This document shows positions 169 to 59,951 of a stretch of DNA of 64,000 bases, one piece after another (within the stretch, counting starts at the first letter, position 1; each line of letters starts with the position of its first letter). The stretch covers positions 1,116,001 through 1,180,000 of the forward strand of contig JANJGN010000140.1 in assembly GCA_026770705.1 (NCBI GenBank), read 5' to 3'. Under the pieces are notes generated by a model, which was not told where the DNA came from, did not search any database, and saw only the letters and a program-made list of their open reading frames with translations. The stretch is from Isurus oxyrinchus (lineage: Eukaryota). A program made the translations under genes and the position numbers.

Positions 169-248
169 GGTTTTTGTATGAGGATGTCGCTGTGCACAGC
201 ACTGTGACCCACTGTAGTATCACAGTGAAATACAGACGCACAAAAACT
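169..248 (-). other. IGHD: IgH D1 gene segment (coding 207-220, ATACTACAGTGGGT) with flanking 12-RSS (V side) and 22-RSS (J side)
   Basis: On the + strand: ggtttttgt(169-177), 22 nt, cactgtg(200-206), coding 207-220, cacagtg(221-227), 12 nt, acaaaaact(240-248). This matches the shark IgM cluster D1 organisation and the horn-shark-type D1 core TACTACAGTGGGT. Confidence 0.95.
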
Positions 249-25035: not shown

Positions 25036-26025
25036 TGTGGATGCGAGTGCGCCTGGAACATATCATATTTAATTGCTTGCAAAAGACATTATAATTATTT
25101 ATCAGCACGTCACGATAGTTTATTGAGAACATATCTATATGCTGCCTATGCTGCCGTAAATATTTATCCATAATGCATTGTCTTGCGTGCTCTGGGAAGT
25201 AATGCGAAGCTGGCCATTCCGTTGTCAAGGCAAACACATCTTTCAAATGACTCACTGAACTTCATCCTTTCCTCCTCTGTCTCAGAATACACCAAAATCA
25301 GTTAACCTCTCTTCTCTCTCCCAGGCTTCACTCCACTTACTTACACAGACTCACAAGGGCCGGATCTGGCAGTTCCGAGGAACCAATGTTTAAATCTTTT
25401 GCTTGAGGCACATTATCACTGAAAAGATTAAGCGCCAAAACCTCATCAGGGGAAAATTCAGTTTCATACACCAGCTCACTCACTTAACCTCTCTCTTCTC
25501 TTTCTCTCAAACAGCACAAAAGCCTCGTAAAACTTTCCATTTTAGAATAACCCTTGTGGGCGATATTACTGTTTCAATTTCCCCTCTTTTCTCCCGGTGA
25601 TAACCTTCAGTCCATCTCGCCTTCATTTAATATGTTATAACCAAAATAACCTCATTTATTTAATTCTTTAAATTGGGAATGGATGTGAATGTAATACCGA
25701 GACCGGCAGCAATCTGTGTGGTTGTTCTTGATGCTGTCAGAGTGAGTTCACCCTCACAGGCAGGAAGACTGTTCACGGTGATAACATGAAACTGACGCCG
25801 GCTGTTTCATTCTCAGGTAACACAACTTCCTGTTTTTCTGCTGCCGGTTCCAAACCGCACATCTCACTTCTGAGCAGAAAATAAATCCAGGGGCCACAAT
25901 CTGGTGAGAACATCTGTCAAGGCGACCTATATCTGGCCACAGAGTTAGGGCAGAGTCACACAGATCACATTGTGATGACATTTACAAATGAGCCTGTTGT
26001 GATCTGCTTAGAGCTTCTATTGCAG

Positions 26026-26257: not shown

Positions 26258-28199
26258 CCTGCACACACTGTCATTCGGAACTTGTTTCCTCTGTTTCTCT
26301 GCAATACTCCGTCTCCCTTTTTCATTTTAAGTCTCATTTGCTCAGTTTTATCTGTTTATCTCTCTGCATATCTCTCTCCTCCCCTCTGTGTGTCTTCAAG
26401 TAAGAGTGCTCAAAATTGTGGAAGTTTTGATAGGGTAAATAGAGAGAGAATATTTCAACTGGAAGGAGGGTCGATAACCAGGAGAGACAGATTTACTTTT
26501 TTGAAGAGGAAGACATAAGGATAATTGTTTATTTTTTTTACATGGCGAGTTGTTATGAACTGGAATGCACAGCTTGAAAGGGTGAGGGAATCTGATTTAA
26601 TAGTAACTTTGTAAAATGAATTAGATTTAACTTCGAACAGTTTAAAATTTGTTGGAATGTATGGAAGGGACCAACAGGATCGATCATCTATAGCATTGTC
26701 CTAGGGCCTTTTCTGTATCCAGATCTGTCCCTCATTGAACCCGAATAAAATACAATAATTGTACAACTTTCGTCGTGTGCTAATCCTGTCATTTGACAGT
26801 ACTTGAGTGTGTGTATCGATAATTACCAGGAATCCTTCAGAAGTTCATTACTATTTACAAATCACTACATTGAATAAAATAACATGGGATAGAACTTATT
26901 TAGTAAAAAGCACGATTATCCTTGACATTTGTGGCTCTGAATTTTCTTCTGGTGAGGTTTTGGTGTTTAATCTTTTCAGTCATCGTGTGCCTCACGCTGA
27001 AGATTTAAACATTGATTTCTACAAACTGCCGGGTCCGGCTCTTGCCTGTCTGTGTAAATGGAGAACTGTTGGTAAGAATGGGAAGGAGTAGATTATTTTC
27101 TGTTCCTCTGACAGACGCAGCATTGTCCTCTCAGATATCAGAAATCTGTGGAGTCCGCCATAATTGTCCTCCCCTTGGGTATAACAGCTCTTGGTCAGGT
27201 GCACTCAGTCACACGGGCCTCTGTCATGTTTCCATTCCGTTTTTACCACATAAATCCCTGTGTCACTCACCATAACACAGCACCCTGCGCTAAGACCATG
27301 AACACCATAGCGTCCTTACACTTTCCCTCTAGATTACAATCAGATGTTTATTAGGCTCCTGCATCCTTTTATGCAAGATTACCCGCAGCCTCTGTTAGTG
27401 ATAGACGGAGCCGGCCTCTGTGATTATCATTATACCAAAGTCCAGTCTGACCCCGGCCCGGCAGTCATATCTCCCTTCTTAACCCAAGGAGGGAGAGGTT
27501 GTTTGTATTTCTGGAGAGGGCAGGATCATCAAAGTAACAATTATGTCCCAGAAAGCCGTCCTTCGCTGGATGGAGATGTAAGAAAATAATGGATAATTTG
27601 ACAGAAAGGCGTGCATATAAACTATCACCGTGAGCATTGGCCTACACATGCTGTCGAGTCCCTGGACTGGGGCTTGAACATTCAGCCTTCTGAGAGGGGT
27701 GAGAGTGCCACAGAATTGTCAATGCTCACACGATCTGCTCCGAGGTCGAATTCCATTAGTAAAAAGATGCTGCAGATGCTAGAAATCTAAAATAAAAACA
27801 GAAGATACTGGAAAAACTCCACAGGCTTTCAGAACGTGGAGAATCTGTTTGTTTTTTTTTGCCTTCGTGCTCTTGGAGAAAGATGTGGAGAGGGAGGAGA
27901 ATTCTGGAGGCGTATTAAAAATCTGCTTGGAGTCGCACGAACTCTCCTTCCATGGCCAACAAATCCTGGAGTGGAGTTTGAACCAAGGTCTTACAACTCA
28001 GAAACAGGACTGTTACCAAATGTTCCACTCTGGTGCAGAGCAGCTTTCCAGAGAAACAGAGTGAGTTTTCAAGTCCATGTACGGTATCGATGTAAACCAT
28101 TAATTCTGTTTGTCTCCTCAGATTCTGCCTGTCCTGCAGAGCAATTGCAGCATTTGCTGCAATTACACTTGACCGTGTCAGTGTCATTACGCTAACTCC

Positions 28200-30810
28200 A
28201 TCCTATTCATATTGCAATGGGGCTTGACTCTGTTATCAGACATTAGACAAAATATTTACCCTCATATCAATAGGCACTGACACACACAGGCAAACACACG
28301 CAAACACACACACACACAGACAGACACACTCATTTATATCAGACCCAATTTGGATGTGGGTGCACGAGATACTGACTGTGTCATCAGAGTGGACCCAGTG
28401 ACGCCTTCAGTAATACCCTGCAGACTGGATCTGTTATACTTGCATCAAACACTATATTTGTTTTACTTAACTCTGCTGTTATTAATCTATTCCATGTGTC
28501 GATTCTCATTGTCTAAGTCGCTGCATCTGTAATGGTGACACTAGGAGCCTTCCCGTTATTCAATTTCTAGTGCAAACCTGTATTATTATTACTGAAAACC
28601 TTGTTCCTGTCAGTTTTCAATCGACCCTGTTTCTAGTATTGATAAGTTATCCCTGTCCCAGTTAGTGTTCCACTATGACGTCTTTCTTTTATTATTGCAC
28701 AAAGTATTTTTTCTATTATGATTATACAAAGACTTGCTTATTCAAATATTCTACCAGATCCCGTCTCACTTATTCCTGGACTAGCCCATATCTCTGCTTA
28801 TCTTACTCCCAGGACCCGTTCGTGTCATCCTGCATTTTCCCATGTCTCTGTCTGTATTAGGCTAGTTCCTGTGTCTCTAATTATTGAACGTGCCCATATC
28901 TCTTTTTCTAACACACCGGTTTCTGTTACTGTTGTTATTGTAGTAGTCCACATTTAGCTTTATATTACACGAGATCCCATCTCTGTTATTACTGAATTAG
29001 TCCACATCTGTTCATATTTCACCAGTAATATCTCTCCTATTGTTACGCTAACTGATGTCTCTAGTTGTATTACAGCAGAGCTTGTCTCTATCATTACAAC
29101 ACTAGTCCATATTTCGGTTTTATTATAACAGGTCCGGTCCCTGTTATTGCTCCAGCAGGCTCTGTCTCATTTTCGATAAGATTACATAGAATATGCAGGC
29201 TAGGGGCTGGCAAATCAGTCCAAAAAATATTAACGTGGTTGGGTTGGAATTTGTTGAAGATAACAGTTCTAACTCTAGATACAGAGATAGTGAAAGTTCT
29301 CTGGAGAGCAGCAGGTGCTTCAATCCTTTCCATCAATAGGAATAATAAGCCGGAGAGTTATAAACGTATTGTTCTCATATCAACACCACTTTTTCAACAA
29401 GAGCACACAACAGAATGGTTACCAACAAATTATTACAGTGTTAAACTATCTACAATTAAAATACATGAACTGTTTGTGTTTTAACACATTCACTGAAGGC
29501 GGGATGGGCTGAAGATTATCACTGAGAGAAATGAAGGAGAATTGTTTAAAAAATGGTTTTTCTAAATAGATTTATTAGAAAATAAGAGATTTAAAATAAA
29601 CAGGGGAATGTCTCACAGAGAGGGAGAGAGAAAGAGGAAGAGGAAGAGAGCATTGAGAGAGAGAGAGAACAAAGTGGTTCAGTGAATTATCCGCTTTCTC
29701 AGACAGAAAGAAGAGGGAGATTTAGCAAGTTTTCTGACAAACATGCCCGCCTCAGCAACGGAATGACCAATATGACACGAATTTCTAAACAAGAATACAT
29801 AACAGAAAATGATCAATAAAAACTTTCGGTATTAAAAGATATGCAGTTACAGTTTGAAGAAGAGAAAGTAAAACGCTGAAACATTCTGGTGAAGATAAAT
29901 CTTATATATTGTGGAATGACAGTGGAAGCGTGAAAATGATTTGTTTCTATACAAACACACAGAACAGGCGATATCTGAAATGTAATTCCATTGACGCACT
30001 GAAACTGAATATCAGGTGCTGCGCAGAACAGACGGTCACTCCGATACTGCCCGTTTTAGGCCAAAGCCACAGGGCCAATTACGAGCACAACATCTTACTT
30101 ATAATATTATCTGTCCATTTAACAGGGGCATAGACTAATACAGTAATAACAGAGACTGGGTGTAGTGTAATATAAGCAGAGATATGGGCCAGTGCAGTCA
30201 TAACAGAAACAGGGGCCAGTGTTATTTTAACAGATACGGGGCCCAGTGTAGCTTTAACTGATTTAGGAAATTGTGTGATATAAACTGAGACAGAGCCTAG
30301 TGCAGTAATTACCAACAAAGGTCCTGGGTTAATATAAACAGAGATGTGGACATGTACAGCAGTGAGAGAGACATGTTATAGCACAACAATAACTGACACA
30401 GGGTATCGTGTGATATAAACAGAGACATAGATTGATGCAGCATTAGCTGAGACATCCTCTAGTTTATTATAAATTTGGCAGGGATTCCCGTATTAATAAC
30501 TCAGACAGGGCCTCCTGAAATGCAAACAGGAACATGTTCTGGTTTAGTATAAGTAGAGAGAAATGCTAATGCAGCAACAATTGAAACATGGAATATTGCC
30601 ATATTAGCCAAGACATGGTTCAATACAGTCATAACTGACAGAATGCCTTGTGTAATATGGCCTTGGTCCAGTATATTAACAATTGAGATTGAGCCTTTTA
30701 CAGAAACAACTGAGACGCAGCCTGCTGTCTAATGATCAGGGACATGAATTGGTGTAATATAAATAGACACCGGACCTTGTTCAGCATGAACAGAGACAAG
30801 GTACGGTGCA
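28200..30810. repeat. Old degenerate 27-bp repeat arrays, + (~28200-29180) and inverted (~30120-30810)
   Basis: Units such as ctagtccatatctctgtttatattaca on + and tgtaatataagcagagatatgggccag on the reverse strand (ORF 30079-30318 TLGPVSVKITLAPVSV). Confidence 0.7.
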
Positions 30811-30999: not shown

Positions 31000-31680
31000 T
31001 AGCGCAGCAATATTTTGTCTTTTCAGATAATAATCTATTTCTTTTTTGAAAGCATTAATTGATCCTGCCTCCATCATATTTTCATGCAGTTAATTCCAGA
31101 TCCAAATCACCCACAGTGTGAAAAGGGTTTTCCCCTCGCCGGATTGTTTCCTCTCCCAATTACCTTAAACCGGTGTCTTCTGGTTCTCCATTCTTGCGCC
31201 AAATGGAACAATTTGCCCCTGCCTAGTCTGTGAAGGACCCCGCCCCCCCTCCCCCCCAACCCCCCCACCCCCCCCCCCCCCCCCCCGATTTTGAAGACCT
31301 GTATCAAATTTCCTTTCAATCTTCCCTTCTTCAAGGAGGTTCGTGCCAAATTCTACAATCTATTCACGTAAATAAAGTTGCTCCTCCCTGCAACAATGTC
31401 CAGGAGACGTTTCTGAAACCCTCTCTAATGCCTTTCAATTCCTCATGAGGTGTTGTGCTTGGTCTAGAATGCAAAACTCTTTGGTACTCTTCCAGCAACT
31501 ACAGACCAGTTAGTTTAGTTCGCTAGTGGGGAAAATTCCAGAAACAATAATGCAGGACAAAATTATAGTTACATGGACAAATGCAGTTAATTAAGGAAAG
31601 CCAGCATGGATTTGTTCAGGGGAAATAATGTTTAAGTAACTTGTTGGAGTCTTTTGAAGAGATAACAGGGAAAGAACAGA
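31000..31680. mobile_element. CR1 fragments (minus 31000-31480, plus 31500-31680)
   Basis: SLKKGRLKGNLIQVFKI...RTRRHRFKV on minus; NYRPVSL...IKESQHGFVQGK on plus. Confidence 0.75.
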
Positions 31681-31684
31681 GAAA

Positions 31685-34120
31685 GAACGGCAATATATTT
31701 CCCGGTCAGAATGGTTTGTGGCTCGGAGGGGAACTTCCAGGTGGTGGTGTCCCCATCTATCGGCTGACCTTGCCCTTCTAGATGGTATTGGTCATGGGTT
31801 TCGAAGATGTTGCCTATGGAGGCTTGATGAATTCTCCACTGCATCTTGAAGATGGTACACACTGCTGCAAATGTGCATCCGTAGTCGAGGGAGTGAATGT
31901 TTGTGGGCGAGTTGTCAATCAAACCGGCTGCATTGCCTTGGGTAGTGTCAAGCTTTTTGAGTGTTGTTGGAGCTGCACTCACCCAGGTAAGTGGAGTGTA
32001 CGCCAGCACACTCCTGACGTGTGCCTTGTAGATGGTGGACAGGCCTTGAGGAGTCGGGAGGTGAGTTACTCGTCGCAGGATTCCTCGCCTCTGACCTGCT
32101 CTTGTAGCTGCAATATTTATATGGTTAGCCCAGCTCAGTTTCTGGTCAATGGCAACCCCCAGGTACTTGATAGTGGGGGATTCAGCGTTAGTAACGCCAT
32201 TGAATGTCAAGGGACGATAGTTAGATTCTATTCTGTTGGAGTTGGTCATTGTCTGGCACTTGTGTGGCGTGAATGTGACTTGCCACTTCTCAGCCCGAGC
32301 CTGGATATTGTTCAGCCCTTGCTGCATTTGGAAACGGACTGATTCAGTATCTGATGAGTCGTGGATGGTGCTGAACCTTGAGCAAAGATCAGAAAGCATC
32401 CCTACATCTGACGTTAAGATGGAAGGAAGGTCATTGATGAAGCAGCTGAAGATGGTCGGGCCAGGACACTACCTTGAGGAACTGATGTCCTGGGGCTGAG
32501 ATGACTGACTTCCAACAACCATAACCATCTTCCTTTGTACTAGGTATGACTCCAAACAGCGGAGAGTTTTCCCACTGATTCCCATTATTCCAGTTTTGCT
32601 AGGGCTTCTTGATGCCATACTGCCAAATTCGGCCTGGATGTCAAAGGCAGTCACTTTCACCTAACATCTCGAGTCCATCTCTTTGTCCAAGTTTGAACCA
32701 AGGCTGTAATGCTGTCACGGACTGAGTGACCTTGATGGAATCCAAAATGAGCGCAGTGAGCAGGTTATTGCCAAGTAAATACCGCTTGATAGCACTGTTG
32801 ATGGCTCCTTCTATCACTTCACTGATGTTCGAGAGTAGACTGATGGAGCAGAAATTGGCCGGGTTGGGCTTGCCCTGCTTTTTGTGTACAGGACGTACTT
32901 GGGCAATTTTCCACATATCCAGGTAAATGCTAGTGTTGTAACTGTACTGGAACAACCTGGCTAGGGGCGCAGCAAGTTCTGGAGCCCAAGTCTTCAGTGC
33001 TATTGCCAGAATATTGTCAGGACCCATTGCCTTTGCAGCAACCAGTGCCTTCAGCCATTTCTTGATATCACGTGGACTGAATCGAATTGGGTGAAAACTG
33101 GCATCATTGAAGCTGGGGACCTCCGGAGGAGGCCGAGATGGATCATCCACTCAGCACTTCTGGCTGAAGATTATTGCGAATGCTTCAGTCTTATCTTTTG
33201 CACTGCTATACTGGGCTCCCTCATCATTGGGGATTGGGATATTTCTGGACCAACCCCCTCCAGTGAGTTGTTTAATTTTCCACCACCATTCACTACTGGA
33301 TGTGGCAGGGCTGCAGAGCTTCGACCAGACCCGTTGGTTGTGGGAATGCTAGGCTCCGTCTATCACTTGCTGTTTATGCTATTTTGCACGCCAGTAGTCC
33401 TGTGTTATAGCTTCACCAGGTTAACACCTCATTTTTAGGTATTCCTGTTGCTGCTTCTGACATGCCCTCCTGCACTCTTCATTCAACCGGGGTTGTTCCC
33501 TTGGCTTCTTGTTAATAGTAGAGTAGGGGATATGCCGGGCCACGATGTTACAGATTGTGTTCGAGTACAATTCTGCTGCTGCTGATTGTCCCCAGTGCCT
33601 CATGGTTGCCCAGCCTTGAGTTGCTAGATCTGTTTGCAATCTATCCCATTTAGCAAGGCGGGAGTGCCACAAAACACAATGGACGATATCTTCAGTGTGA
33701 AGATGGGTCTTCGTCTCCACAAAGACCGTGTGGTGGTCACTCCTACAAATACTGTCATGGACAGATGCATCTGCGGCACGCAGGTTGTTGAGGATGGGGT
33801 CAAGTATCTTTCCCCCCCCCCCCCCTTGTTGTTTCCCTCACCACCTGCCGCAGACCCAGTCTAGCAGCTATGTCCTCTAGGAATCGACCAGCTCGGTCAG
33901 TAGTGGTGTTGCCGAGCCACTCTTGGTGATGGGACATTGAAGTCCCCACCCAGAGTACATTCAGCGCCTTTGCCATTCTCATTGCTTCCTCCAAGTGGTG
34001 TTCAACATGGAGCAGCACTGATTCATCAGCTGAGGGAGGGCCGTACGTCGTAATCAGCAGGAGGTTTCCTTCCCCATGATTGGACAGATGCCTTGAGACT
34101 TCATGGGGTCCGGAGTCCGG
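31685..34120 (-). mobile_element. CR1/L2-group LINE ORF2 remnant (APE endonuclease end plus RT), adjoining the truncated V exon
   Basis: GNLLLITTYGPPSADESVLLHVEHHLEEA; KAMGPDNILAIALKTWAPELAAPLARLFQYSY...PVHKK...PANF.SISLLS; WQVTFTPHKCQ...KYLGVAIDQKLSW. Confidence 0.9.
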
Positions 34121-34121
34121 A

Positions 34122-34459
34122 CCCGGGGGCATGGCTGCATAGAATATGAGGCATCAGTGGTCAAATAGCTGTAAGTAATGATCACCGAATCTCCTTCAAC
34201 TGCAGCGCTGTAACCGGCTCCTGTGAGATTGAATTTGTACCACCAACACCTGCGGGAATTTAGAGATGCAGAACGTTAAGATTGCATTATCATTTTATTC
34301 TATCTAATAAAATCAGGTGACGGAACATGCTGCAACTTGAAAGAGAGAACAGTGAAATTAACTTTAAGATCTATGCAAGAGGAAGGTTGTGCAACTTGTG
34401 GACTTACTGGGTAAGAGAGCTACAGCTGTGAGAAATGGATAAAAAGTAAAACCAATATA
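34122..34459 (-). pseudogene. TRAV/TRDV: TCR alpha/delta-like V pseudogene, family A (left arm); start lost, 3' half replaced by LINE
   Basis: Leader (Y)IGFTFYPFLTAVALLP|gtaagt at 34459-34408. Exon from 34249 reads SVGGTNSISQEPVTALQ-EGDSVIITYSYLTTDASYSMQ with a 1-nt deletion. Paralogous to 39436-39877. Confidence 0.8.
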
Positions 34460-34994
34460 TTTGCAACGAGCTGATGGTGGGTTTAAACAGAACGGACTGA
34501 ATCTGTAATTGTTTCAGTCTCGAGTTGGGAACGGGCTCATGCAGATCTGGTCTCTCCAGCGATTGGTTCATTCCTGAGCGAGGCAACAAGTGATGTCCAA
34601 TAAGCTCCACCGTATTTTGTTCTCCAATTCATCCAATCAACTCACAGATCCTTTGTTCTCCAATTCATAACGTCAGAGAGGATGCAGCGAATCAGTGTAG
34701 ATGACACGATCCGAGACGAGGACTGAACCCAATTTTGGCTCTTTAATAGGGTCATTGTGTGAGGTGGTGACAGTGAGGGGAAAGAACTAATGCTGTTCTT
34801 GTACCAATGCCAGCGAGCCACATTCAAAGACCTGCCCACTGACCATGGGAATCAACCACAGCTGATATTGAGAGGAATAGTACATAGAATTATATAGGGT
34901 CTGCAACACATAAATATGCCACTATCCTAAATTAATCTTTAGCACTATTAACAGTTAACAATCCAGATGCTAACAGTGATCTGTGAGAGAAGTT

Positions 34995-35408
34995 GGTTTT
35001 TTATGGCCTAACTGTGCCTCTGTAACAGTGTGGCATTCAGTCCATGTGACACACGGCAGAGACAGAGACAGTCAAGGGAATAGTTTTCTTGTATTTTTCC
35101 AAATCAGCAGAAAACCGCTCTGGGAGATCTGGAGGCTTAGCCTCTTGCGCCAGCCTGTATTTCCCCAGTAAATATCTCGGAGCTCCAGGACATCCCAGTG
35201 GAGATAGTGAATGCCATGGGACGTGGAGTAACTGCAGCTTCGTATCAGGATCTTTTCTTCATGCAGTGTTAAGCATGAAGGCGAACCCTGAGATTCTGAA
35301 TCTTAGTCACTCGTTGCGGCAAAATAAAGAATGTTTCAAAAACTGATCACCTAAACATAGACTCACCAGGTACCACATTGCTACCAGTGAGGAACATGGT
35401 GAACGCAT
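34995..35408 (-). pseudogene. TRAV/TRDV: TCR alpha/delta-like V pseudogene, family C (left arm), with 23-RSS
   Basis: Leader ATG 35408 to donor GTGAGT at 35366. Body DSESQGSPS...LIRSCSYSTSHGIHYLHW / PGAPRYLLGKY...PDLPERFSADLEKYKKTIPLTVS / SAV. RSS is CACACTG(35032-26), 23 nt, A-AAAAACC. Confidence 0.85.
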
Positions 35409-36399
35409 GGTGTCTTGTTTAAGCTATGATAGAAATGAACAGAATGTTTTATCTATGTTGACATTTCTGGTCCGATATTAAGGAGCAAATTCAGCGAAGG
35501 GGGAGATTTCGCTTGTAGTGGGAATTCTGGGCGTTTCTCTTTGACACGATTGTCTGGCCCCTCAGAGCTGACAGCAGATGTATGCCAAGCGGCGCTGGCT
35601 GTGAGCCAATGACTGAAGTCTCCTGTCCAACATTTTCCTTGTCTGGCTGTGTGAGCGATTCTGTCTGTCAGTCTGTCTGTCTGTCTCTCAGCCTCTCTCT
35701 CTCTTCCTCTCTTTCCCTTGGTGCTCCTGCGTCAATCTATCTGCTTAATCCGGCGTTTTCCTCTCTTTGCCTTTTCGTCTGCACCTTTCATCTTGTTCCT
35801 ACTCCTTTCCCGCCTCTGCCCCTCTCTCTTTATCTCTCTGTCCTGATCTCATACACTTTGCTTAACTCATTGTCTTTCTCTTTCCATCTCTCTCTACACC
35901 TATGCATTCCAGTGATCTCCCTTTTATCCCGGTCTCACGCTGCCTATTTCTCCCTCCCTCTCTCTATATCCGCCCCTTCTAACGCTCACCCCTCTCCCTA
36001 ACAATTTCAGTGGAAAATAATGAAACGCAATTCATTCCCTGTCATCACTGTCAAAGTCAATAATCTCCATTACTAGTCACAGCCAAAAGAGCCCAGAGAC
36101 ATGATGAAGTGAACATAGCTGCACTGGTGAAATAGCAATTAAAAATATGACCTGAAGAGTCTACAGAACACCCAGAACACTTACGACAACAGTTGGCTCG
36201 GGTATTCATTCAGAAGTCCATAATTCTGTGCATGGAAGTGGAAATTTCTAAATTTGGCCATAACTTAAAATGATTGAGAAATTTCAATTTCTCTAAATCT
36301 GAGAGCAGTGATTTCAAGCTGGCGGATCACAATCAGATCAGGATGTATTTCTTCATTCATTTTTCTGTGTAAATTCCCGGGGAATCTTCTGATCCGATT

Positions 36400-36607
36400 T
36401 CTTGTTCTTTCTCAGGCAATGAATCTCCATCACTCATCTCTGAAAATAAACAACGGACACACAGCAGGTTAGGTGAAGTGACAGAAAGAGACGAATCTCC
36501 CAGAGATGGAATTGGGAAATTATACAAAGATGGGAGAAAATTATAGGAAGTGCCCAATATCACCGACTAGTGATCGAGACAATAACCAAAGCCAGGCAGA
36601 GTTTCAT
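36400..36607 (-). pseudogene. TRAV/TRDV: TCR V pseudogene, family B (left arm): leader, intron and first codons only
   Basis: MKLCLALVIVSIT|gtcggt at 36607-36568. The intron end ccgttgtttattttcag matches 37910-37926, and the exon start AG ATG AGT GAT GGA GAT TCA parallels ETRTGDS. Confidence 0.7.
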
Positions 36608-37714
36608 CTCCTTGGCTCAAGTCTGAACTTCAGAATCAGATATTTTGATCATTGGGGTAAAAAAATGAAACAGCGCCGAGATCACAGCAGGTCAGCGGGA
36701 ATTTCTTCCCCATTTGTATCTCCCTGAACAACTACTTCATGTAGCACGGGAACATGGTCGCGATCACATGATCAGAGAGCACCCTCAGCTGAACAACACA
36801 CCCTCGCGGAGCCGCATAGTCACATTCCCATAAAACCTCAGTTACAGAAATGCATGCACAAACAGATAACCACAGTAGGTAAAAGCACAAGATGGATGTG
36901 TTTTTATATTTGTATTTCACTGTCTCTGTTTCCAAGTCTGCATTATCTGTTTTGTGTCAATCACCCTGTTTATTTGTCTGCCTATGTTGGTGATTTTCAA
37001 TATGTGGGCCCATGGTGAATTAGATCTGTTTGTGTGTCTATGACTGTGTTTATCTGCCTGTTTCTATCTTTGTGTTAATCCACATCTGCGTCTGCATTGG
37101 AGTGGATCTGTTTTGTGTCAGTAACTGTGTTTACCTGTCTGTCCGCCTATTTCTCTGAATCGGCACGTTTGATTCTGTGTGCTGTACGAGGTTTGTAGTG
37201 AACACGGGAGACGCGCTCTGATCAAGAATTCTGATTTTCGTCGTAACCAGCTCAGCCGAATTTCCATCAAAAACCTCAAAAACATAACTGGCTTTATGTT
37301 GGCTCACTTTTAATGTTATGACTGCGCTTGGACATATGCCTAGATGTTCATGTGTATCCGTGCGTGTATACCTGTGTAAATATGTCCGTGTGTTCATACG
37401 TCTGGATGTTCATGTATGTCCCTGTGTGTATATTCCTGTGTGTTTATATTTCTCGATGTTTATGTGACTGTGCACGTGGTCCTATTGTTTTTTTCAAAGC
37501 TGTTGTGCTGTCTACGGGAGGGCGCACTCTGGTCAGCTGCTAAAGATCACGGTTCCTTTCAACAGGAAGTAGCTGCTTGAAGATATGAAAATTGGCAGAG
37601 TGAAGAAATCCCAGCCGATCGCATATCATGCCACTGGCTCTTTCAATTTCTCCCATTCCAGGTCTGGTACAGACGGTGATCGCTGTTGCTGTTTCTGGAG
37701 ATCAGACTGGAACC

Positions 37715-38275
37715 ATGGGGGTGGAACTGTCTTTTTTTATTCATGTACGAGGTGTGGGCTTCGCTGGCTGGGCCAGCTTTTATTCCTTATTCCCAGTTGC
37801 TCTGACTATGGTTATGTTCCTGATCACAGGCCAGTACGCGATCCTTGTGCAATTTCCCATCTCCGGATGATAATTCTCTTTCTAATGCTCCTTCTAATCC
37901 GCTGTGTAGCCGCTGTTTATTTTCAGAGACGAGAACTGGAGACTCAGGTTCCCAGCCAGAACAATGTTGCGAAGCAGGAGAGGGCGAAGGTTCAGCAATA
38001 ACCTGCAAGTTACTCTGTATCGAGTTGAGCTACACAGCATAACCTGTTCTGATATCGCCAGGTTCCACAGCAAACTCCTCAGTATCTGATCAGAGCCGAT
38101 ATTTACGGGTATAACGATACGGCTCTGGATTTAAACACTCCAACGGGAACCTCAACCCGCCAGGAAGCACTTTTCACTTGTTCATGAAAGAGCTGAAGAT
38201 GACAGACAGCTCCGTGCATTATTGCGCGCTGGGGCCCACAGGGACTGAGTGTCTCGTGGGTCTCATCCAGAAACT
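37715..38275 (+). pseudogene. TRAV/TRDV: TCR alpha/delta-like V pseudogene, family B (right arm), with 23-RSS
   Basis: Leader 37715-37829 carries a retro insert. Exon from 37927 reads ETRTGDSGSQPEQ..EGEGSAITC / SYSVS...LF*YRQVPQQTPQYLI / STFHLFMKELKMTDSSVHYCAL. RSS is CACAGGG(38237-43), 23 nt, CCAGAAACT(38267-75). Confidence 0.9.
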
Positions 38276-38897
38276 GGGTGCAGGTCGACAATCAAGGGTT
38301 CAAATATTAAGAAAACGCAAAGAGTTCAACCCCGGAGAACCAGTGCAGAGAATGAATGCAACAATGCAGTCTAATTCGAGTTGATTCCTCTCGTTAAGGT
38401 CAATGTTTGTCATTGTTGCGAAATGTGACATTCAACGATCATTTTAACTCCAGGATCAAATTCAAACTTCTCATTGTCCGCTTAAATAAAACCTGTAGAG
38501 CCCCCGGGTGAATACCAGAACCAATCTGTATTTGTAATGGTTCTGGGCCTGCTGCCTATCTGTCAGGGACTAGTTTCAAAAGTGACCTAGTTTCAAAGGC
38601 GGCCTAAGGCTCAGCACATTTCAGAGTGTCTGGGGTAAAAATAGTGAATGGCTAAACTCGGCACTTTACCAGTACAAGATGATCCCCAATGACTTAATGA
38701 GAGCGAAAGATCTATCTATCTAAAGATAGAGACATTGAATTATAAAGAAAGCGAGTTAAAGCGAGAAAGAGACAGAATGATTGATTATGTGAGACAGAGC
38801 AAGGGAACGAGAAAGACAGGCAGAAAGAGCCAGCGGTGGAAGGTGATTGGTCAGTGTCAACTGTATATTACGCTGAACCAACAGTGAATGGTTTAGA

Positions 38898-39030
38898 ACA
38901 AAAACAGAATTACCTGGAAAAACTCAGCAGGTCTGGCAGCATCGGCGGAGAAGAAAAGAGTTGACGTTTCGAGTCCTCATGATCCTTCGACAGAACTGGA
39001 AATGTAACCAGTTTTCTTTGTTTTTATCCA
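38898..39030 (-). mobile_element. Short Penelope-like terminal-repeat insertion with hammerhead, 15-bp TSD
   Basis: TSD agtgaatggtttaga at 38883-97 and 39031-45; hammerhead on the minus strand at 38959-38997. Confidence 0.88.
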
Positions 39031-39193
39031 AGTGAATGGTTTAGAGCTGACTTCATATCTGAGAGAGCAGCCAATCGCAGGGCTGAGAAACGCCCCTCAG
39101 TTCCCCAAAAGGAAAAAAAAAGTGCCATTGGCATAAGACTCCGAGCGTCCACATATTTTAAACAGCGTGCTGTTTACTATCGAATCAGGAACC

Positions 39194-39345
39194 ACGTGTT
39201 CCTTGCGTACTTTACTGATAATACTGGTCATGCTACCCGGTGAATCTGAGCTAAAATCCTCAGTGTGTGTTTCATGGGTTATATTTAATCACAAATGTTG
39301 ACACATTCTATACACATTCACCTGTTAACTTTTTCAGGGGTGAAC
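39194..39345 (+). pseudogene. TRAV/TRDV: Family C V leader and intron (right arm); V body deleted
   Basis: ACG(ex-ATG)-CSLRTLLIILVMLP|gtgaat at 39194-39239, with an acceptor at 39337. It is homologous to the 35408-35367 leader and runs straight into family A upstream sequence. Confidence 0.65.
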
Positions 39346-39435
39346 AAATCGGCTGCGAGGTCCGGCTAATACTCAACAACTAAAACAATTCTGGTGAAAC
39401 ACATTTTGTTCAAATCTACCATCAGCTCAGTGAAC

Positions 39436-39877
39436 ATGATGGGTGTTACTTTTTAATCATTCCTCGCAGCTGAAGCTCTCTTAACTGGTAAGACTCACAA
39501 GTTACCCAATTTTCATCTTGATGGTGACACTGAGACAGTAATCCTCCCTTTAACTGCCTTTTCCCTGTATTTGCATATATTCTTTTAACTTAATAACAAT
39601 TGGTGATAAAAAATTCTCATAAAAAGTTAAAGCTTTCTATTTCTAAATTTCTGCAGGTATTCATGCTGCAGACTCTGTTTCGCAGGAGCCGGAGAGAGTG
39701 CAACAGTTTGAAGGAGACTCGGTGAACATTAATTTGAGTTATGCGACCACTGCTGGTTTCTATTTCATACAACTGTACCGTCAGCACTGGGAGCAGGCTC
39801 CCACATTCTTGATCTCCACTCCTTCTGCTGAGGATGTTTTCAGAGTAGAGGGCGTGTACCTGAAATTGTTTTCGTGA
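39436..39877 (+). pseudogene. TRAV/TRDV: TCR alpha/delta-like V pseudogene, family A (right arm), 3'-truncated
   Basis: Leader MMGVTF*SFLAAEALLT|gtaaga at 39436-87. Exon from 39657 reads GIHAADSVSQEPERVQQFEGDSVNINLSYATTAGFYFIQLYRQHWEQAPTFLI; no YYC or RSS. Confidence 0.85.
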
Positions 39878-41069
39878 AAAGTGGTTAATATTGCGCAACA
39901 TCCGGCGTTTCTGCCTATTGGTTCATTCTTGACAGAATCAGCAGGTGGCATCCAATCAGGTCCTTTATTCTGTTATTCGTCCAATCAGCTGAGAGCTCCT
40001 TTACTCTCCAATTCGTGATATCAGATCGGGCAACAGTGAATGGAACAGTGAGTAGAACAGGAATTAAACACAATGTTATCCCTTCAACTGTTTGAGTCCG
40101 CGAGGTGGGTGGAGTGAATGGAAAGTGTTCATATTGCGCTGGTATCAGTGCCGGAAGCTCACGTTAAAAGAGCTTCTCACTGATCATTAGGGCAATCCAC
40201 GGCAAATAGAAAGGTGGTTATAGAGGACCAGGGTGCTCTGAAAGCTTTGAGTAAAGCAACACGGTCAATTAAACCAATTCCACCTATTACATGAATGAAA
40301 TAGGGATTGACTGACAGGGTTGAGCAGAACGGGAGAGGTAAGCAGTAGGTGAGATCAGACAAACTCTGCTCTGTGAAATATATTTACAATATATTTACAT
40401 TCTTAATATCTTAATCGTTCATCATAAGGTTTAAAATGAAACACACTTTTCATTTGAAACGATAACCTCTATTCCCGACTATATTTCGCTACTTCCTTTT
40501 AAAAATGAATTAATTGAATAATGTTACAAACATGTGAATGAAGAATTGTCTTGGGTTTGGGGAAAGAGCAAGGATGAGAGGTTAATTGCATTGGACATAC
40601 GAAGAGCTGGCACAAGCAAAATGGTCCGAATGGACTCCTCCGCTGCTGGATGGTGCATTGATCTCCGCCTGACTGAACTAAACACTGTTTCCGGAACAGA
40701 CCTGGCCAACAGCCAAGAGCTGAAGGTTAGCAACATGAGAAAACAATAGCAATAAAACAGTAACAGGCTTCAGCCGACCCTGTTAACACTTTCCCTGCTG
40801 AACGGATGGTGTATGTGGACCTGTAATTCACAAACACGTCAACTGTATTGAGGAGAGCAGCGTTGGGTGTGGAGATTGTCAGTCCTCGCTAAAGATCAAA
40901 AGTATGAAGCTAATTCTATTCATTGTGTTTCCTGGTTTCTGCATTCGGTGGATCAGGAATATGACTGGAGGATTAGTTTAATCGGGAATTATTGCGATTT
41001 GAAATCAAGAACATTACTTTCGTAGTAAATATCTTTCATATCATCACGGAGGGCAAGGATTCAATCTAA

Positions 41070-41196
41070 CGCTGATGCGCTGCTGTCGCTGATGAGCTGC
41101 GCTCGCTGATGCGCTGCTCTCGCTGATGCACTGCTCTAGATGATGCGCTGCTCTCGCTGATGCGATGCTCTCGCTGATGCGGTGCACTCGCTGATA
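41070..41196. repeat. 17-bp minisatellite, ~7.5 copies
   Basis: Unit CGCTGATGCGCTGCTCT. Confidence 0.92.
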
Positions 41197-41789
41197 TGCC
41201 CCCTGGAGCCAGATTTCTCATCTATCCTTTTCAATAAAAGCCACAACTGTCTCCTTTTGCTCAGGAAGTACTGGTGGGCAAGCCCGGAATTGGGAAGGAG
41301 ATTAATATTGGACCCGAAACGTTCAATCTGCTTCTCTCTCCACAGATGTTGCCAGACCTTTCCAGCATGTTCTGCTTTCATTTCAAATCTCCAGCACCCG
41401 TGGTATTTTGCTTTCATACAAGGGTACACATCCATTGTGTCTGATGCAGAGTGAGCCCATCGGTTGTTTCAATACTGCAATTCCCCCTGCATTTAATTAG
41501 AGCTTAAAAATGATGAATAACCGCAATTGGTTTTGGAAACAAATGCCTTTAATGTACGCGCATTTGAGGCCTGTTGTTGTGCCCAGGCCCGGAAACACAT
41601 GAATTGTATTGCCTGCAGTGGCTGCACATTATTGACTAACCTCGCCTTCTACAACAGTAAACGTCATTTAATGCTAAATAATCTCCAGGGAACAGAATGT
41701 ATAAGGAACATTTGGACATTTTCAACGCATTGAGAATTTAAGATTCATCTAAATACTTGCTTTTCTTTCAAAACTGAGAGTCTGCGGGG

Positions 41790-50200: not shown

Positions 50201-50491
50201 AGCTCGCTTTCCAACATATAGGATGACATTATTTTGAGTACTTCAATAACTTTATTCCCATCTGTAAATTTACAGGATTCTGATTCCCGCATGTTGTCAC
50301 CACAGGGATCTCTCATATCAGATGGTATCTATAGTTTTCCGAGAAGTATATTAGCCAAACTGTACGAATGAAATAGCATTGATGTGTTGGAGATAAAAGT
50401 GGGAAGTTAACAGCCAATAATCTGACCGCATAGTCTCAACTGTTATTGTACGATTTAAGGTCATTATTTTCTCCACTGCTCTCCATATTCT

Positions 50492-51810
50492 ATGTTACAT
50501 CAAATTCATAAATTTGTGAGCTGGAACGTAACAGTCCTCACACCCTCACCTGAGATTAACCCATCCAATCAGAGTGGAAATACAAGTCTTGTGACCTCAA
50601 CTGATAGCACTTTCCATGCTTTGGGTCACGTTAAAACGATCGCCTTCCTCTGCCTCTTTAGCTTATTACTTGTATTGGGTATTAGTAGGAACGCAATTGC
50701 TTAGTGGCACATCATAAGATTAAAGAAACTCTCGTCAACATCTGATGTGCTTGTGCTGGACTTAACCATCACCAACTTGTTGATTATTGTTGCTTCCAAC
50801 GTTTACATTATTGCTATTACCCTAGATTATATCACAATGCAGTTATATAATAGTTTTATCCTTCTCTTGTATGCACCTTTCATGGCCTGCATTGTTGTTG
50901 ACTAATACATAGCTGTTGCCCACCTCACCAGGTCTCAGGCCTGGAGAAAGCATCGATACTATGTTATACTGTCCATTGAAACTTGGCTGGAAGTCTTAGC
51001 TCTGAGTTTAATTACTATTTTCAGATAGATAATGATATTATATAATACAGTTTCATGCAAGGAAATGTCCACGGCGTGGAGGCCACGGGAAATATTCATG
51101 CTGATTTCTGAAATTATGTTGTTCGCTATTCCAGCCCGGATCCTGTTCATCTTCTATGTCCTGACATCACAGAAACTGACAGGAGTGGGAACTGGGAAGC
51201 AACCCATGGAGTTGATGAAAAGAAACTTTTGAAGATAGATGCTGGAATAAAAACAAAAAACTGCGGATGCTGGAAAAATGGTTCAAAACGTCAACTCTAT
51301 TCTTCTCTGCCGATGCTGCCAGACCTGCTGAGTTTTTCCAGGTAATTCTGTAGATGCTGGAATGTTGGCTCTTCTCCTTTTCTGCTTTGCCTGTTATCAC
51401 GTCCCTGAATTATATTTTGGTGCTCAGGATCTGCTAGGATCTGTTGGAAGCAGCAGTAATCAACAAGTTGGTGATGGTTAAGTCCAGCACAAGCACATCA
51501 GATGGTGACGAGAGTTTCTTTAATCTTATGATGTGCCACTAAGCAATTGCGTTCCTACTAATACCCAATACAAGTAATAAGCTAAAGAGGCAGGGGAAGG
51601 CGATCGTTTTAACGTGATCCAAAGCATGGAAAGTGCTATCAGTTGAGATCACAAGACTTGTATTGATGGATCTGCTAGATCCATCATATCCAGTCATAGC
51701 ATTTTACCGGTGCAAAGTTCCATTTTACATCTGGGTTCTCATTTCCTTCTCTGCCTTGCTGTGCAGTTTCAGGTCCCAGAACTTTAACTGAAGATCGTGC
51801 TGCTGCATTG
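50492..51810 (+). pseudogene. Single-exon rhodopsin delta-group GPCR pseudogene (paralog of 58960-59951)
   Basis: FVSWNVT...LGISRNAIA*WH...SDVLVLDLTITNLL...ACIVVD*YIAV...AWRKHRYYV...EIMLFAIP...SQKLTGVGTGKQPMELMK...FRSQNF. It has multiple stops, a PLE insert and an inverted self-copy. Confidence 0.88.
51249..51350. mobile_element. ~100-bp Penelope-like insertion, 13-bp TSD
   Basis: TSD tagatgctggaat at 51236-48 and 51351-63; inverted extension plus terminal repeat end. Confidence 0.88.
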
Positions 51811-58570: not shown

Positions 58571-58959
58571 GATAATAGGCAGATATATCCCCGAGAGAGG
58601 TTCACTGAAAGACATTGAGAGATTTATCCAACTTTCTCATATTCGCAATACAGGAAATTTCACAATTCAACAGCTTTCTGCATATATGTCCATTTTCAGG
58701 CTTCTGAGTCCTTCACAATCTTTGGAATCCTGTAACCAGTTGCCAGAGGAATCGCTTGGCAGAATTGGTTTCCACTGTTTTCTGATGGGATCTTCATGCG
58801 AACTGAACCACTGAGAGAGGCTTAATGACATTGAGATCCAGTTTATTCCTTCAAAAACCAATAAGCTGAGACTGCAATCTCAACCGTGATTGGGCAATAT
58901 CTGCTGGAAGTTACTCCACGTTTTTTGATTGGCTGTTCTACATTTTTGTCAGAACACCA

Positions 58960-59951
58960 ATGGCTTTTTTTGTGACCTGGAATGTAACAATCACCAGAAC
59001 CTGGTTGGAAATCAACTCAACCATTCAGACTGGAAGTGCTAGCCTTGGAGCCTCGATGGGCAACGCTGAAGAAGTCACTTTCATGATGCACTTGCTTGTC
59101 ATTCCCATTTTTCTCGGCCCATGCTTCCTACTGGGTATCACTGCGAACTCAGTTGCACTATGGCATATCAAAGGAAAGAAAATCTCATCGCCCTCTGATG
59201 TCCTCCTTCTGGACTTAATCATCATGAACATCTTTATAATCCTGGCTTCTGCAATTACCATTCTGAAAATTATACATTCATTTATTTCAGTACAACTACT
59301 TGACTATTTCGTCATTGGACGAACATAATCAGCCTTTATGGCAGACCATTCTTCATGACCTGCATTGCTATTGACCAGTACATCGCTGTTGTCAACCCCA
59401 TCAAGTTTCATGCCTGGAGAAAGCCCAGATATTACGTTGTTCTTTCAATAGCAACTTGGCTGACGATGCTCACCCTGAGCTTGGTGGTCTTTTTCCTTGC
59501 AAGAAGCCCGTTGGGCAACTCATTTACATGCAGTACTCAGGTTTCAGCCTGGGAGCAGAAACTGGTGCTTATGCTGTGCCCAGAAATTGTGGTGTTTTTC
59601 ATCCCAATCCTAATCCTTTTGACCTGCTATGCCCTGAGTGCAAAGAAACTGAGTGAAGTGGGAACTGGGAAGGAATCTATGGAAATGATGAAGAAGAAAG
59701 TGCTGAGAACCATTTGGGCAATGTTGGCTCTTCTGCTTATCTGTGTTGCCCTATATCACGTCACTGAAATGTCTTTTATTCTGAAGAGTCTGCTGGATCC
59801 CACAAAAGAAACCGTGAGTTGGTACATTTGTAATGTTCGTCCGTATACCTGGGCCATCAGTTTCCTGAACACCATCCTTAATCCACTGCTCTACATTTTC
59901 AGGTCCCAAACCTTTCAATGGAAGGCGGGTTGCTGTAGAGCACGCCAGTAA
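58960..59951 (+). pseudogene. Single-exon rhodopsin delta-group (P2Y/PAR/FFAR/LPAR-like) GPCR with one frameshift near 59318
   Basis: TM1 LGITANSVALW, TM2 DLIIMNIF, TM3 NIISLYGRPFFMTCIAIDQYIAVVNP, TM5 FFIPILILLTCY, TM6 ICVALYHV, TM7 NTILNPLLY. The two ORFs join after restoring 1 nt. Confidence 0.88.

Follow-up and report, generated by a model that had tools for sequence, protein, structure and literature searches.

Remnants of a mirrored T-cell receptor-type V array in alternating orientation in Isurus oxyrinchus

The DNA considered here is a stretch of 64,000 nucleotides from Isurus oxyrinchus (GenBank assembly GCA_026770705.1, contig JANJGN010000140.1, positions 1,116,001 to 1,180,000 of the forward strand), and this whole stretch is referred to below as the window. 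Between 34.1 and 40.2 kb it contains six copies of variable (V) segments belonging to three families, here called A, B and C, which form two mirrored arms (A<-C<-B and B->C->A) diverging from a head-to-head junction near 37.15 kb, with a further remnant at the right end. The array is probably a dead relic, a T-cell receptor (TCR) V block of B, C and A set out in alternating orientation, the third block reduced to the A upstream region, and eroded by ordinary pseudogene decay. By origin the segments appear to be TCR alpha/delta-type V, an assignment that is firm for A only, and, judged by their sequence, none of the six V copies can work as it stands.

Homology between the arms and the third block

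A preliminary description of this DNA had proposed that three leader/V families occur in the same order on both strands, and that a low-stringency self-comparison would bring this out. Self-BLAST of the window at low stringency does so, with collinear anti-diagonal matches in the order A, C, B. The A pair (34136-34518 against 39771-39379) aligns at 66% (E 4e-41), the C pair (35321-35587 against 39285-39037) at 56% (E 0.019), and the B pair in two pieces, 36385-36531 against 37981-37841 at 67% and 36662-36800 against 37649-37504 at 63%. Local alignments of the promoter-leader-intron pieces were scored against 200 dinucleotide shuffles per pair: A/A reached z 31 (67% identity), B/B z 20 (56% with gaps) and C/C z 13 (55% with gaps), with 0/200 shuffles attaining the score in each case, and all 12 cross-family pairs stayed at z of 1.2 or below, none above its shuffles. 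Since cross-family DNA could not be aligned, this 15-pair score matrix took the place of a six-segment tree; each segment groups with its own family, as had been predicted.

The homology includes non-coding DNA. All three upstream motifs that had been quoted as shared between the arms were found, and the B-C spacer, which the earlier account did not name, also aligns (35730-36388 against 38320-38967; z 12.4, 0/200 shuffles). This spacer occupies 35730-36385 on the minus strand in the left arm and 38320-39030 on the plus strand in the right arm, the latter with a young high-copy repeat at 38897-39000. A mirror partner is present for about 1.8 kb of the 2.67 kb left arm. The collinear pieces (A, C, B and the B-C spacer) are 52-67% identical between the arms, which differ at 34-48% of sites over ungapped columns (Jukes-Cantor (JC) distance 0.45-0.77). 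Collinear anti-diagonal homology extending into non-coding DNA marks the array as an inverted segmental duplication of a V block.

Between the two B promoters lies an asymmetric, TG-rich centre (36810-37495) with a weak extra B promoter motif near 37195-37225; tested for self-complementarity, this 0.7 kb is not palindromic (z 1.0). In the centre (36950-37540), some 310 bp of B upstream sequence may also have undergone an old direct duplication, the B promoter motif recurring near 37216; the score of this match is inflated by low complexity.

The simple two-arm palindrome originally pictured does not describe the array, which runs <- -> <-. The A-left upstream region (34468-34860, minus strand) is CCAAT-rich and non-coding as far as tested, and 34470-34856 recurs at 39827-40200 in the same orientation (62-64%, E 4e-26, z 23). 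At the mirror position, upstream of A-right, a 60-bp remnant of it (39317-39378, plus strand) matches both the left and the third upstream copies (0/2000 shuffles for each) and is detected by nhmmer with a profile of the region (E 0.005). Across the three promoter copies 49 of 111 columns are identical, against at most 35 in 60 shuffles. The third copy, an A promoter with its upstream region (39826-40205, minus strand, oriented as in the left arm), is fused tail-to-tail to the truncated A-right exon at a junction near 39.83 kb and is the remnant of a third block.

The A upstream region was also considered as a fourth V exon and rejected as unproven: its frameshift-aware score was 45, while eight shuffles reached up to 35, and it showed no codon-position bias, no V match in PDB and none in Pfam. 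The octamer GAAACGCC occurs four times in the window, three times in V upstream regions (35537, minus; 39087, plus; 39911, minus), where it sits directly after a CCAAT-like box, and it is a candidate shark TCR V promoter element.

State of the V copies and their losses

A working V set, available for both deletional and inversional joining, had been envisaged for this DNA. Every copy is broken, and 0/6 combine an open leader, a V exon with both Cys and the Trp, and a recombination signal sequence (RSS). A-left (34130-34457, minus strand) retains a leader without ATG (34457-34408), an intron and the 5' third of the V exon (34249-34130), which is abutted and cut at about 34130 by a decayed element resembling a long interspersed nuclear element (LINE). 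This element (31632-34130, minus strand; RVT_1 E 3.6e-4, below the curated cut-off) matches other repeats of the window over 31675-34071, and the 3' half and RSS of A-left were not found in a search beyond it. A-right (39317-39826, plus strand) has a leader (39436-39487) with an in-frame TAA at 39454, an intron, and a V exon from 39657 to about 39826 that is without the conserved Cys and Trp and truncated after framework region 2. Its open piece has TCR alpha as all 22 of its 22 best PDB hits (E 7e-5 to 5e-3), and among cluster representatives it is related to vertebrate Ig-like proteins, including one named TCR alpha V; a word-index protein search with it gave no match.

B-right (37495-38275, plus strand) comprises a promoter-like region, a weak leader, an intron with an interspersed repeat (37732-37816), a full-length V exon (37927-38236) and, directly after it, a 23-type RSS-like signal (38237-38275) with one heptamer and three nonamer mismatches. 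Stops lie at 38026 and 38050 and frameshifts near 38007 and 38126; the last frame matches V-set at E 0.039. B-left (36385-36810, minus strand) is a stub with a promoter-like region, a decayed leader, an intron and the first 55 nt of the V exon (36439-36385), after which about 335 bp, including the RSS, is deleted. C-left (34994-35590, minus strand) holds a promoter-like region, a leader (35408-35367), a V exon (about 35305-35033) and, directly after it, an RSS-like signal with a 22/23 spacer (35032-34994); its leader is out of phase, a frameshift lies near 35190, no second Cys motif is present and a stop precedes the heptamer. C-right (39037-39316, plus strand) is reduced to a promoter-like region, a leader starting at ACG (39194-39239) and an intron, a deletion of about 710 bp at about 39303-39317 having taken the C exon, the RSS and most of the A upstream region. 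The loss of the B body on the left and of the C body on the right stands as first described. The exons and RSS-like signals said to be kept, C on the left and B on the right, are likewise present, but the bodies that carry them are pseudogenes.

For B and C, the alpha/delta assignment is drawn from V-reference scores, the 23-type RSS and context. Against fish V-like references, which carry no chain name, B-right scores 143 (shuffles at most 38) and C-left 91 (shuffles at most 35), each with most of the V domain covered, versus 83 and 37 respectively against shark VH; their PDB matches are generic V or weak (E 0.17-1.5 for C-left). Signs of a split leader consist of leader, GT donor and AG acceptor for A, the donor for C and the acceptor for B, in each case on both arms, several of them decayed. 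The 23-spacer-type 3' RSS follows the B-right and C-left exons and is absent in the four truncated copies, and the sole match of the RSS scan in the window with a 12 spacer and a perfect heptamer is that of an immunoglobulin heavy chain (IgH) D segment, described below. NAR-TCR cassettes consist of a NAR V-D-J unit followed by a leaderless supporting V-delta. The array was rejected as such a cassette, A, B and C each having a leader and no D/J-type 12-RSS having turned up in the array.

A V-profile scan of all six frames of the window returned only a VH and four V remnants in the array at an independent E-value below 1. With nhmmer and five pair profiles no further cassette copies were found in the window outside 34.1-40.2 kb, the matches there being caused solely by the repeat in the B-right intron, and Rfam gave 0 matches over 33000-41500.

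The losses had been described as reciprocal. A complementary loss is not supported, since A is truncated on both arms; two independent deletions among three genes strike different genes two times in three, so that the reciprocity of the B and C losses needs no selection. The pattern most probably reflects simple decay rather than a sharing of tasks between deletional and inversional joining. One end of each deletion lies past the nonamer (about 45 bp for B, about 400 bp for C) and the other inside or before the exon; a break at the heptamer border, as in a RAG-made germline deletion, was looked for in both and not found.

The second organism and the origin of the array

Contigs from the same and a second organism (organism B) were compared in five of the 20 sequencing runs with the stretch; the depth and identity figures below are taken from the best rows among the contig matches listed, and depth is a rough proxy for copy number. 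Same-organism contigs match both arms at about 100%. The longest organism B contigs among those listed, at about 88-95% identity, cover both arms in the same order and leave small gaps, and the mirrored layout that had been suggested for a search in related sharks is present, with the same deletions, in the second species at about 91-95% identity. Contigs of organism B cross the B deletion (35729-36965 in run X5 and 35914-36799 in run X16), the junction of A with the LINE-like element (34088-35655 in runs X5 and X12) and the C deletion (39268-39741). These lesions are therefore older than the divergence of the two organisms. The arms would have separated roughly 5-10 times earlier than the species, because their JC distance is 0.45-0.77 as against 0.05-0.10 between species.

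Contig depth sets the right end apart. The C-deleted junction has a depth of 436 versus 55 for the left-arm contig in run X12 and of 158 versus 21 in run X5, and the contigs of this junction and of the third block lie at 8-10 times the left-arm depth in both runs, which suggests that the derived, already C-deleted right end was later copied about eightfold elsewhere in the genome. More distant contigs, at about 4-8 times the depth and with pieces above 80% identity, carry either A, its upstream region and C in that order, including the C body and RSS, or B, spacer and C, including the B body. We read this as a multi-copy B-C-A cassette family with three copies in the window. In organism B, two distinct contigs of similar depth cover the centre, B-right and spacer (36936-38776), which may point to a further copy of the head-to-head junction. 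Right of the array, 40200-41050 is matched in both organisms by several related contigs at elevated depth, and no V, C-block or ORF match was found in it.

In the course of events that we propose, the three-V block would have been copied locally with strand flips, long ago, the flips arising, by a slight preference, through inverted duplication that left an asymmetric, non-palindromic spacer. Deletions, LINE insertion and point lesions would then have eroded the redundant copies, the B and C losses being independent, neither made by RAG nor selected as a pair, and the C-deleted right end would afterwards have been amplified about eightfold elsewhere. The ancient head-to-head duplication of the preliminary description survives here in so far as a duplication with a strand flip took place long ago and each arm lost one V body, and is amended by the third block. 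The relic presumably plays no part in V(D)J joining today, and, judging from known loci, it is plausible that both orientations were used in such joining ancestrally.

The same dead outcome could have been reached if the block was first triplicated in tandem and its middle copy then inverted, a course to which we give a sizeable minority chance. The inversion alone would account for both the head-to-head and the tail-to-tail junction; blocks 1 and 3 are co-oriented, the centre is not palindromic, and among the promoter copies the middle one and the third resemble each other least (53%). However, over 111 columns such differences in identity do not exceed noise, template-switch inverted duplications are likewise expected to leave non-palindromic spacers, as set out in the part available of an avian study (10.64898/2026.09.05.749481), and a young inverted duplication (216/222 identical) 11 kb away shows that such events happen here. 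We consider a further course unlikely, in which a single head-to-head duplication was followed by complementary losses under selection, so that one usable copy each of B and C would remain, oppositely oriented and with their promoters back to back. In its favour, the deletions of B and C are indeed reciprocal, both survivors keep an RSS-like signal and one C-left lesion is seemingly absent in organism B, but B-right (two stops, two frameshifts) and C-left both bear several lesions, A is lost on both arms, a third-block remnant exists and reciprocity by itself has a two-in-three chance.

Very improbable is an avian-type array of gene conversion donors, which the alternating orientation, the kb scale and the apparently multi-copy right end would recall. 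At 52-67% identity the arms do not appear to be undergoing homogenisation, the amplified part is without the C body and half of A, and nurse shark TCR alpha has been reported to diversify by hypermutation (PMC5931798, in the part available). We attach next to no weight to a false palindrome produced by assembly: no single contig spans the whole array, but its arms differ at 34-48% of aligned positions, same-organism contigs match both of them almost perfectly and the second organism tiles both in order.

Several observations nevertheless weigh against reading the array as a three-block relic broken by ordinary decay. The missing spanning contig applies here too, and the copy numbers come from a depth that is only a rough proxy. 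Organism B has seven extra bases at the frameshift site of C-left (as well as a 15-base loss at 35072), so the frameshift may have arisen recently, and C-left may still have been a working gene after the duplication; such a late death may fit a phase of complementary retention. No C or B parts of the third block were found right of 40205 (z -0.6 and -0.3), and the pairwise identities of the three promoter copies (60%, 61% and 53%), over only 111 columns, point to no particular order of events.

Known systems and genomic neighbourhood

TCR alpha/delta-type V exons, some of them pseudogenes, lie between shark IgM clusters in both orientations according to the accessible parts of a recent study, whose Table S1 gives for the white shark a divergent minus/plus pair separated by about 3.5 kb and a plus/minus/plus trio contained in about 3.5 kb (Flajnik et al., 2025; PMC12227049). 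The array resembles this elasmobranch antigen receptor complex, with TCR alpha/delta V in both orientations tens of kb from IgM clusters; the study, in those parts, gives gene models and orientations only, with no account of mirror homology at base level, of a three-gene unit or of the re-amplification of a dead copy (PMC12227049). In avian IGH, clusters of one to several V are copied in reverse (mean 2.8 kb), giving, as in the array, direct and inverted copies of one unit around a non-palindromic centre (10.64898/2026.09.05.749481). That system is IgH V, dense, fast-evolving and tied to gene conversion, as far as the available text goes, which nowhere contains the words 'shark', 'cartilaginous' or 'TCR' (10.64898/2026.09.05.749481). 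The array, in contrast, is a single old set of TCR V at 52-67% identity with no sign of conversion.

A V-gene block in mirror orientation is also seen in the proximal/distal duplication of human IGK, but the arms there, in the portion of the source available, span about 0.5 Mb, are more than 98% identical and carry functional genes on both sides (10.1101/006866). The inverted TRAV block of Atlantic salmon shares with the array TRAV segments in both orientations at one locus; in the accessible text it comprises 29 genes, and of the 14 inverted genes that are functional 13 are expressed (PMC8559430), whereas the shark copies are all broken. Inverted V duplications are already known as a kind from human IGK, salmon TRAV and bird IGH, and the array adds a dead, alternating case. 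No account of a mirrored shark V cassette was found in the literature searched, which did not extend to the PDF supplement of PMC12227049 or, for the most part, to subscription papers on the nurse shark locus.

By itself the array is a pseudogene fossil. It offers a base-level reason for the two-way facing of shark TCR alpha/delta V between IgM clusters, and its shared deletions and junctions are usable markers for ordering the duplications of the shark antigen receptor complex; the same markers could test if TCR V relics travel with IgM clusters. More speculatively, the shark TCR alpha/delta V field might grow as multi-V cassettes are duplicated in inverted orientation, repeatedly and at the kb scale, in an old parallel to the 'cross-stitch' of bird IGH, with dead cassettes carried along in IgM minicluster amplification and recording the spread of IgH out of the TCR alpha/delta region.

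An open VH-D unit lies 33 kb from the array, at 167-1145 on the minus strand, and continues as a cluster past the left end of the window. It has a leader (about 1086-1145), an open exon (656-960; V-set E 4e-16), a 23-spacer RSS (655-617) and a D segment (207-220, minus strand) between 12- and 22-spacer RSS with perfect heptamers. The VH is 76% identical to a Heterodontus Ig heavy V and 84% to a Chiloscyllium protein. We take the unit to be IgM-type, largely from the Heterodontus match and the layout, and to be the start of an IgH minicluster.

Two related class A G protein-coupled receptor (GPCR) pseudogenes, about 60% alike, lie on the plus strand at 58666-59951 and 50242-51441; the piece at 59304-59948 matches 7tm_1 (E 1e-24), with a frameshift near 59310. 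In and beside the pseudogene at 50242-51441 is the young local inverted duplication mentioned above (50579-50800 and 51443-51664, 216/222 identical). Old inverted matches at 25154-25665 with 29454-29829 and 26937-27092 (61-76%), whose translations have no V motif, are probably dispersed repeats. A 17-bp tandem repeat lies at 41056-41212, and a long decayed 54-bp satellite, in both orientations, extends over about 6400-30950.

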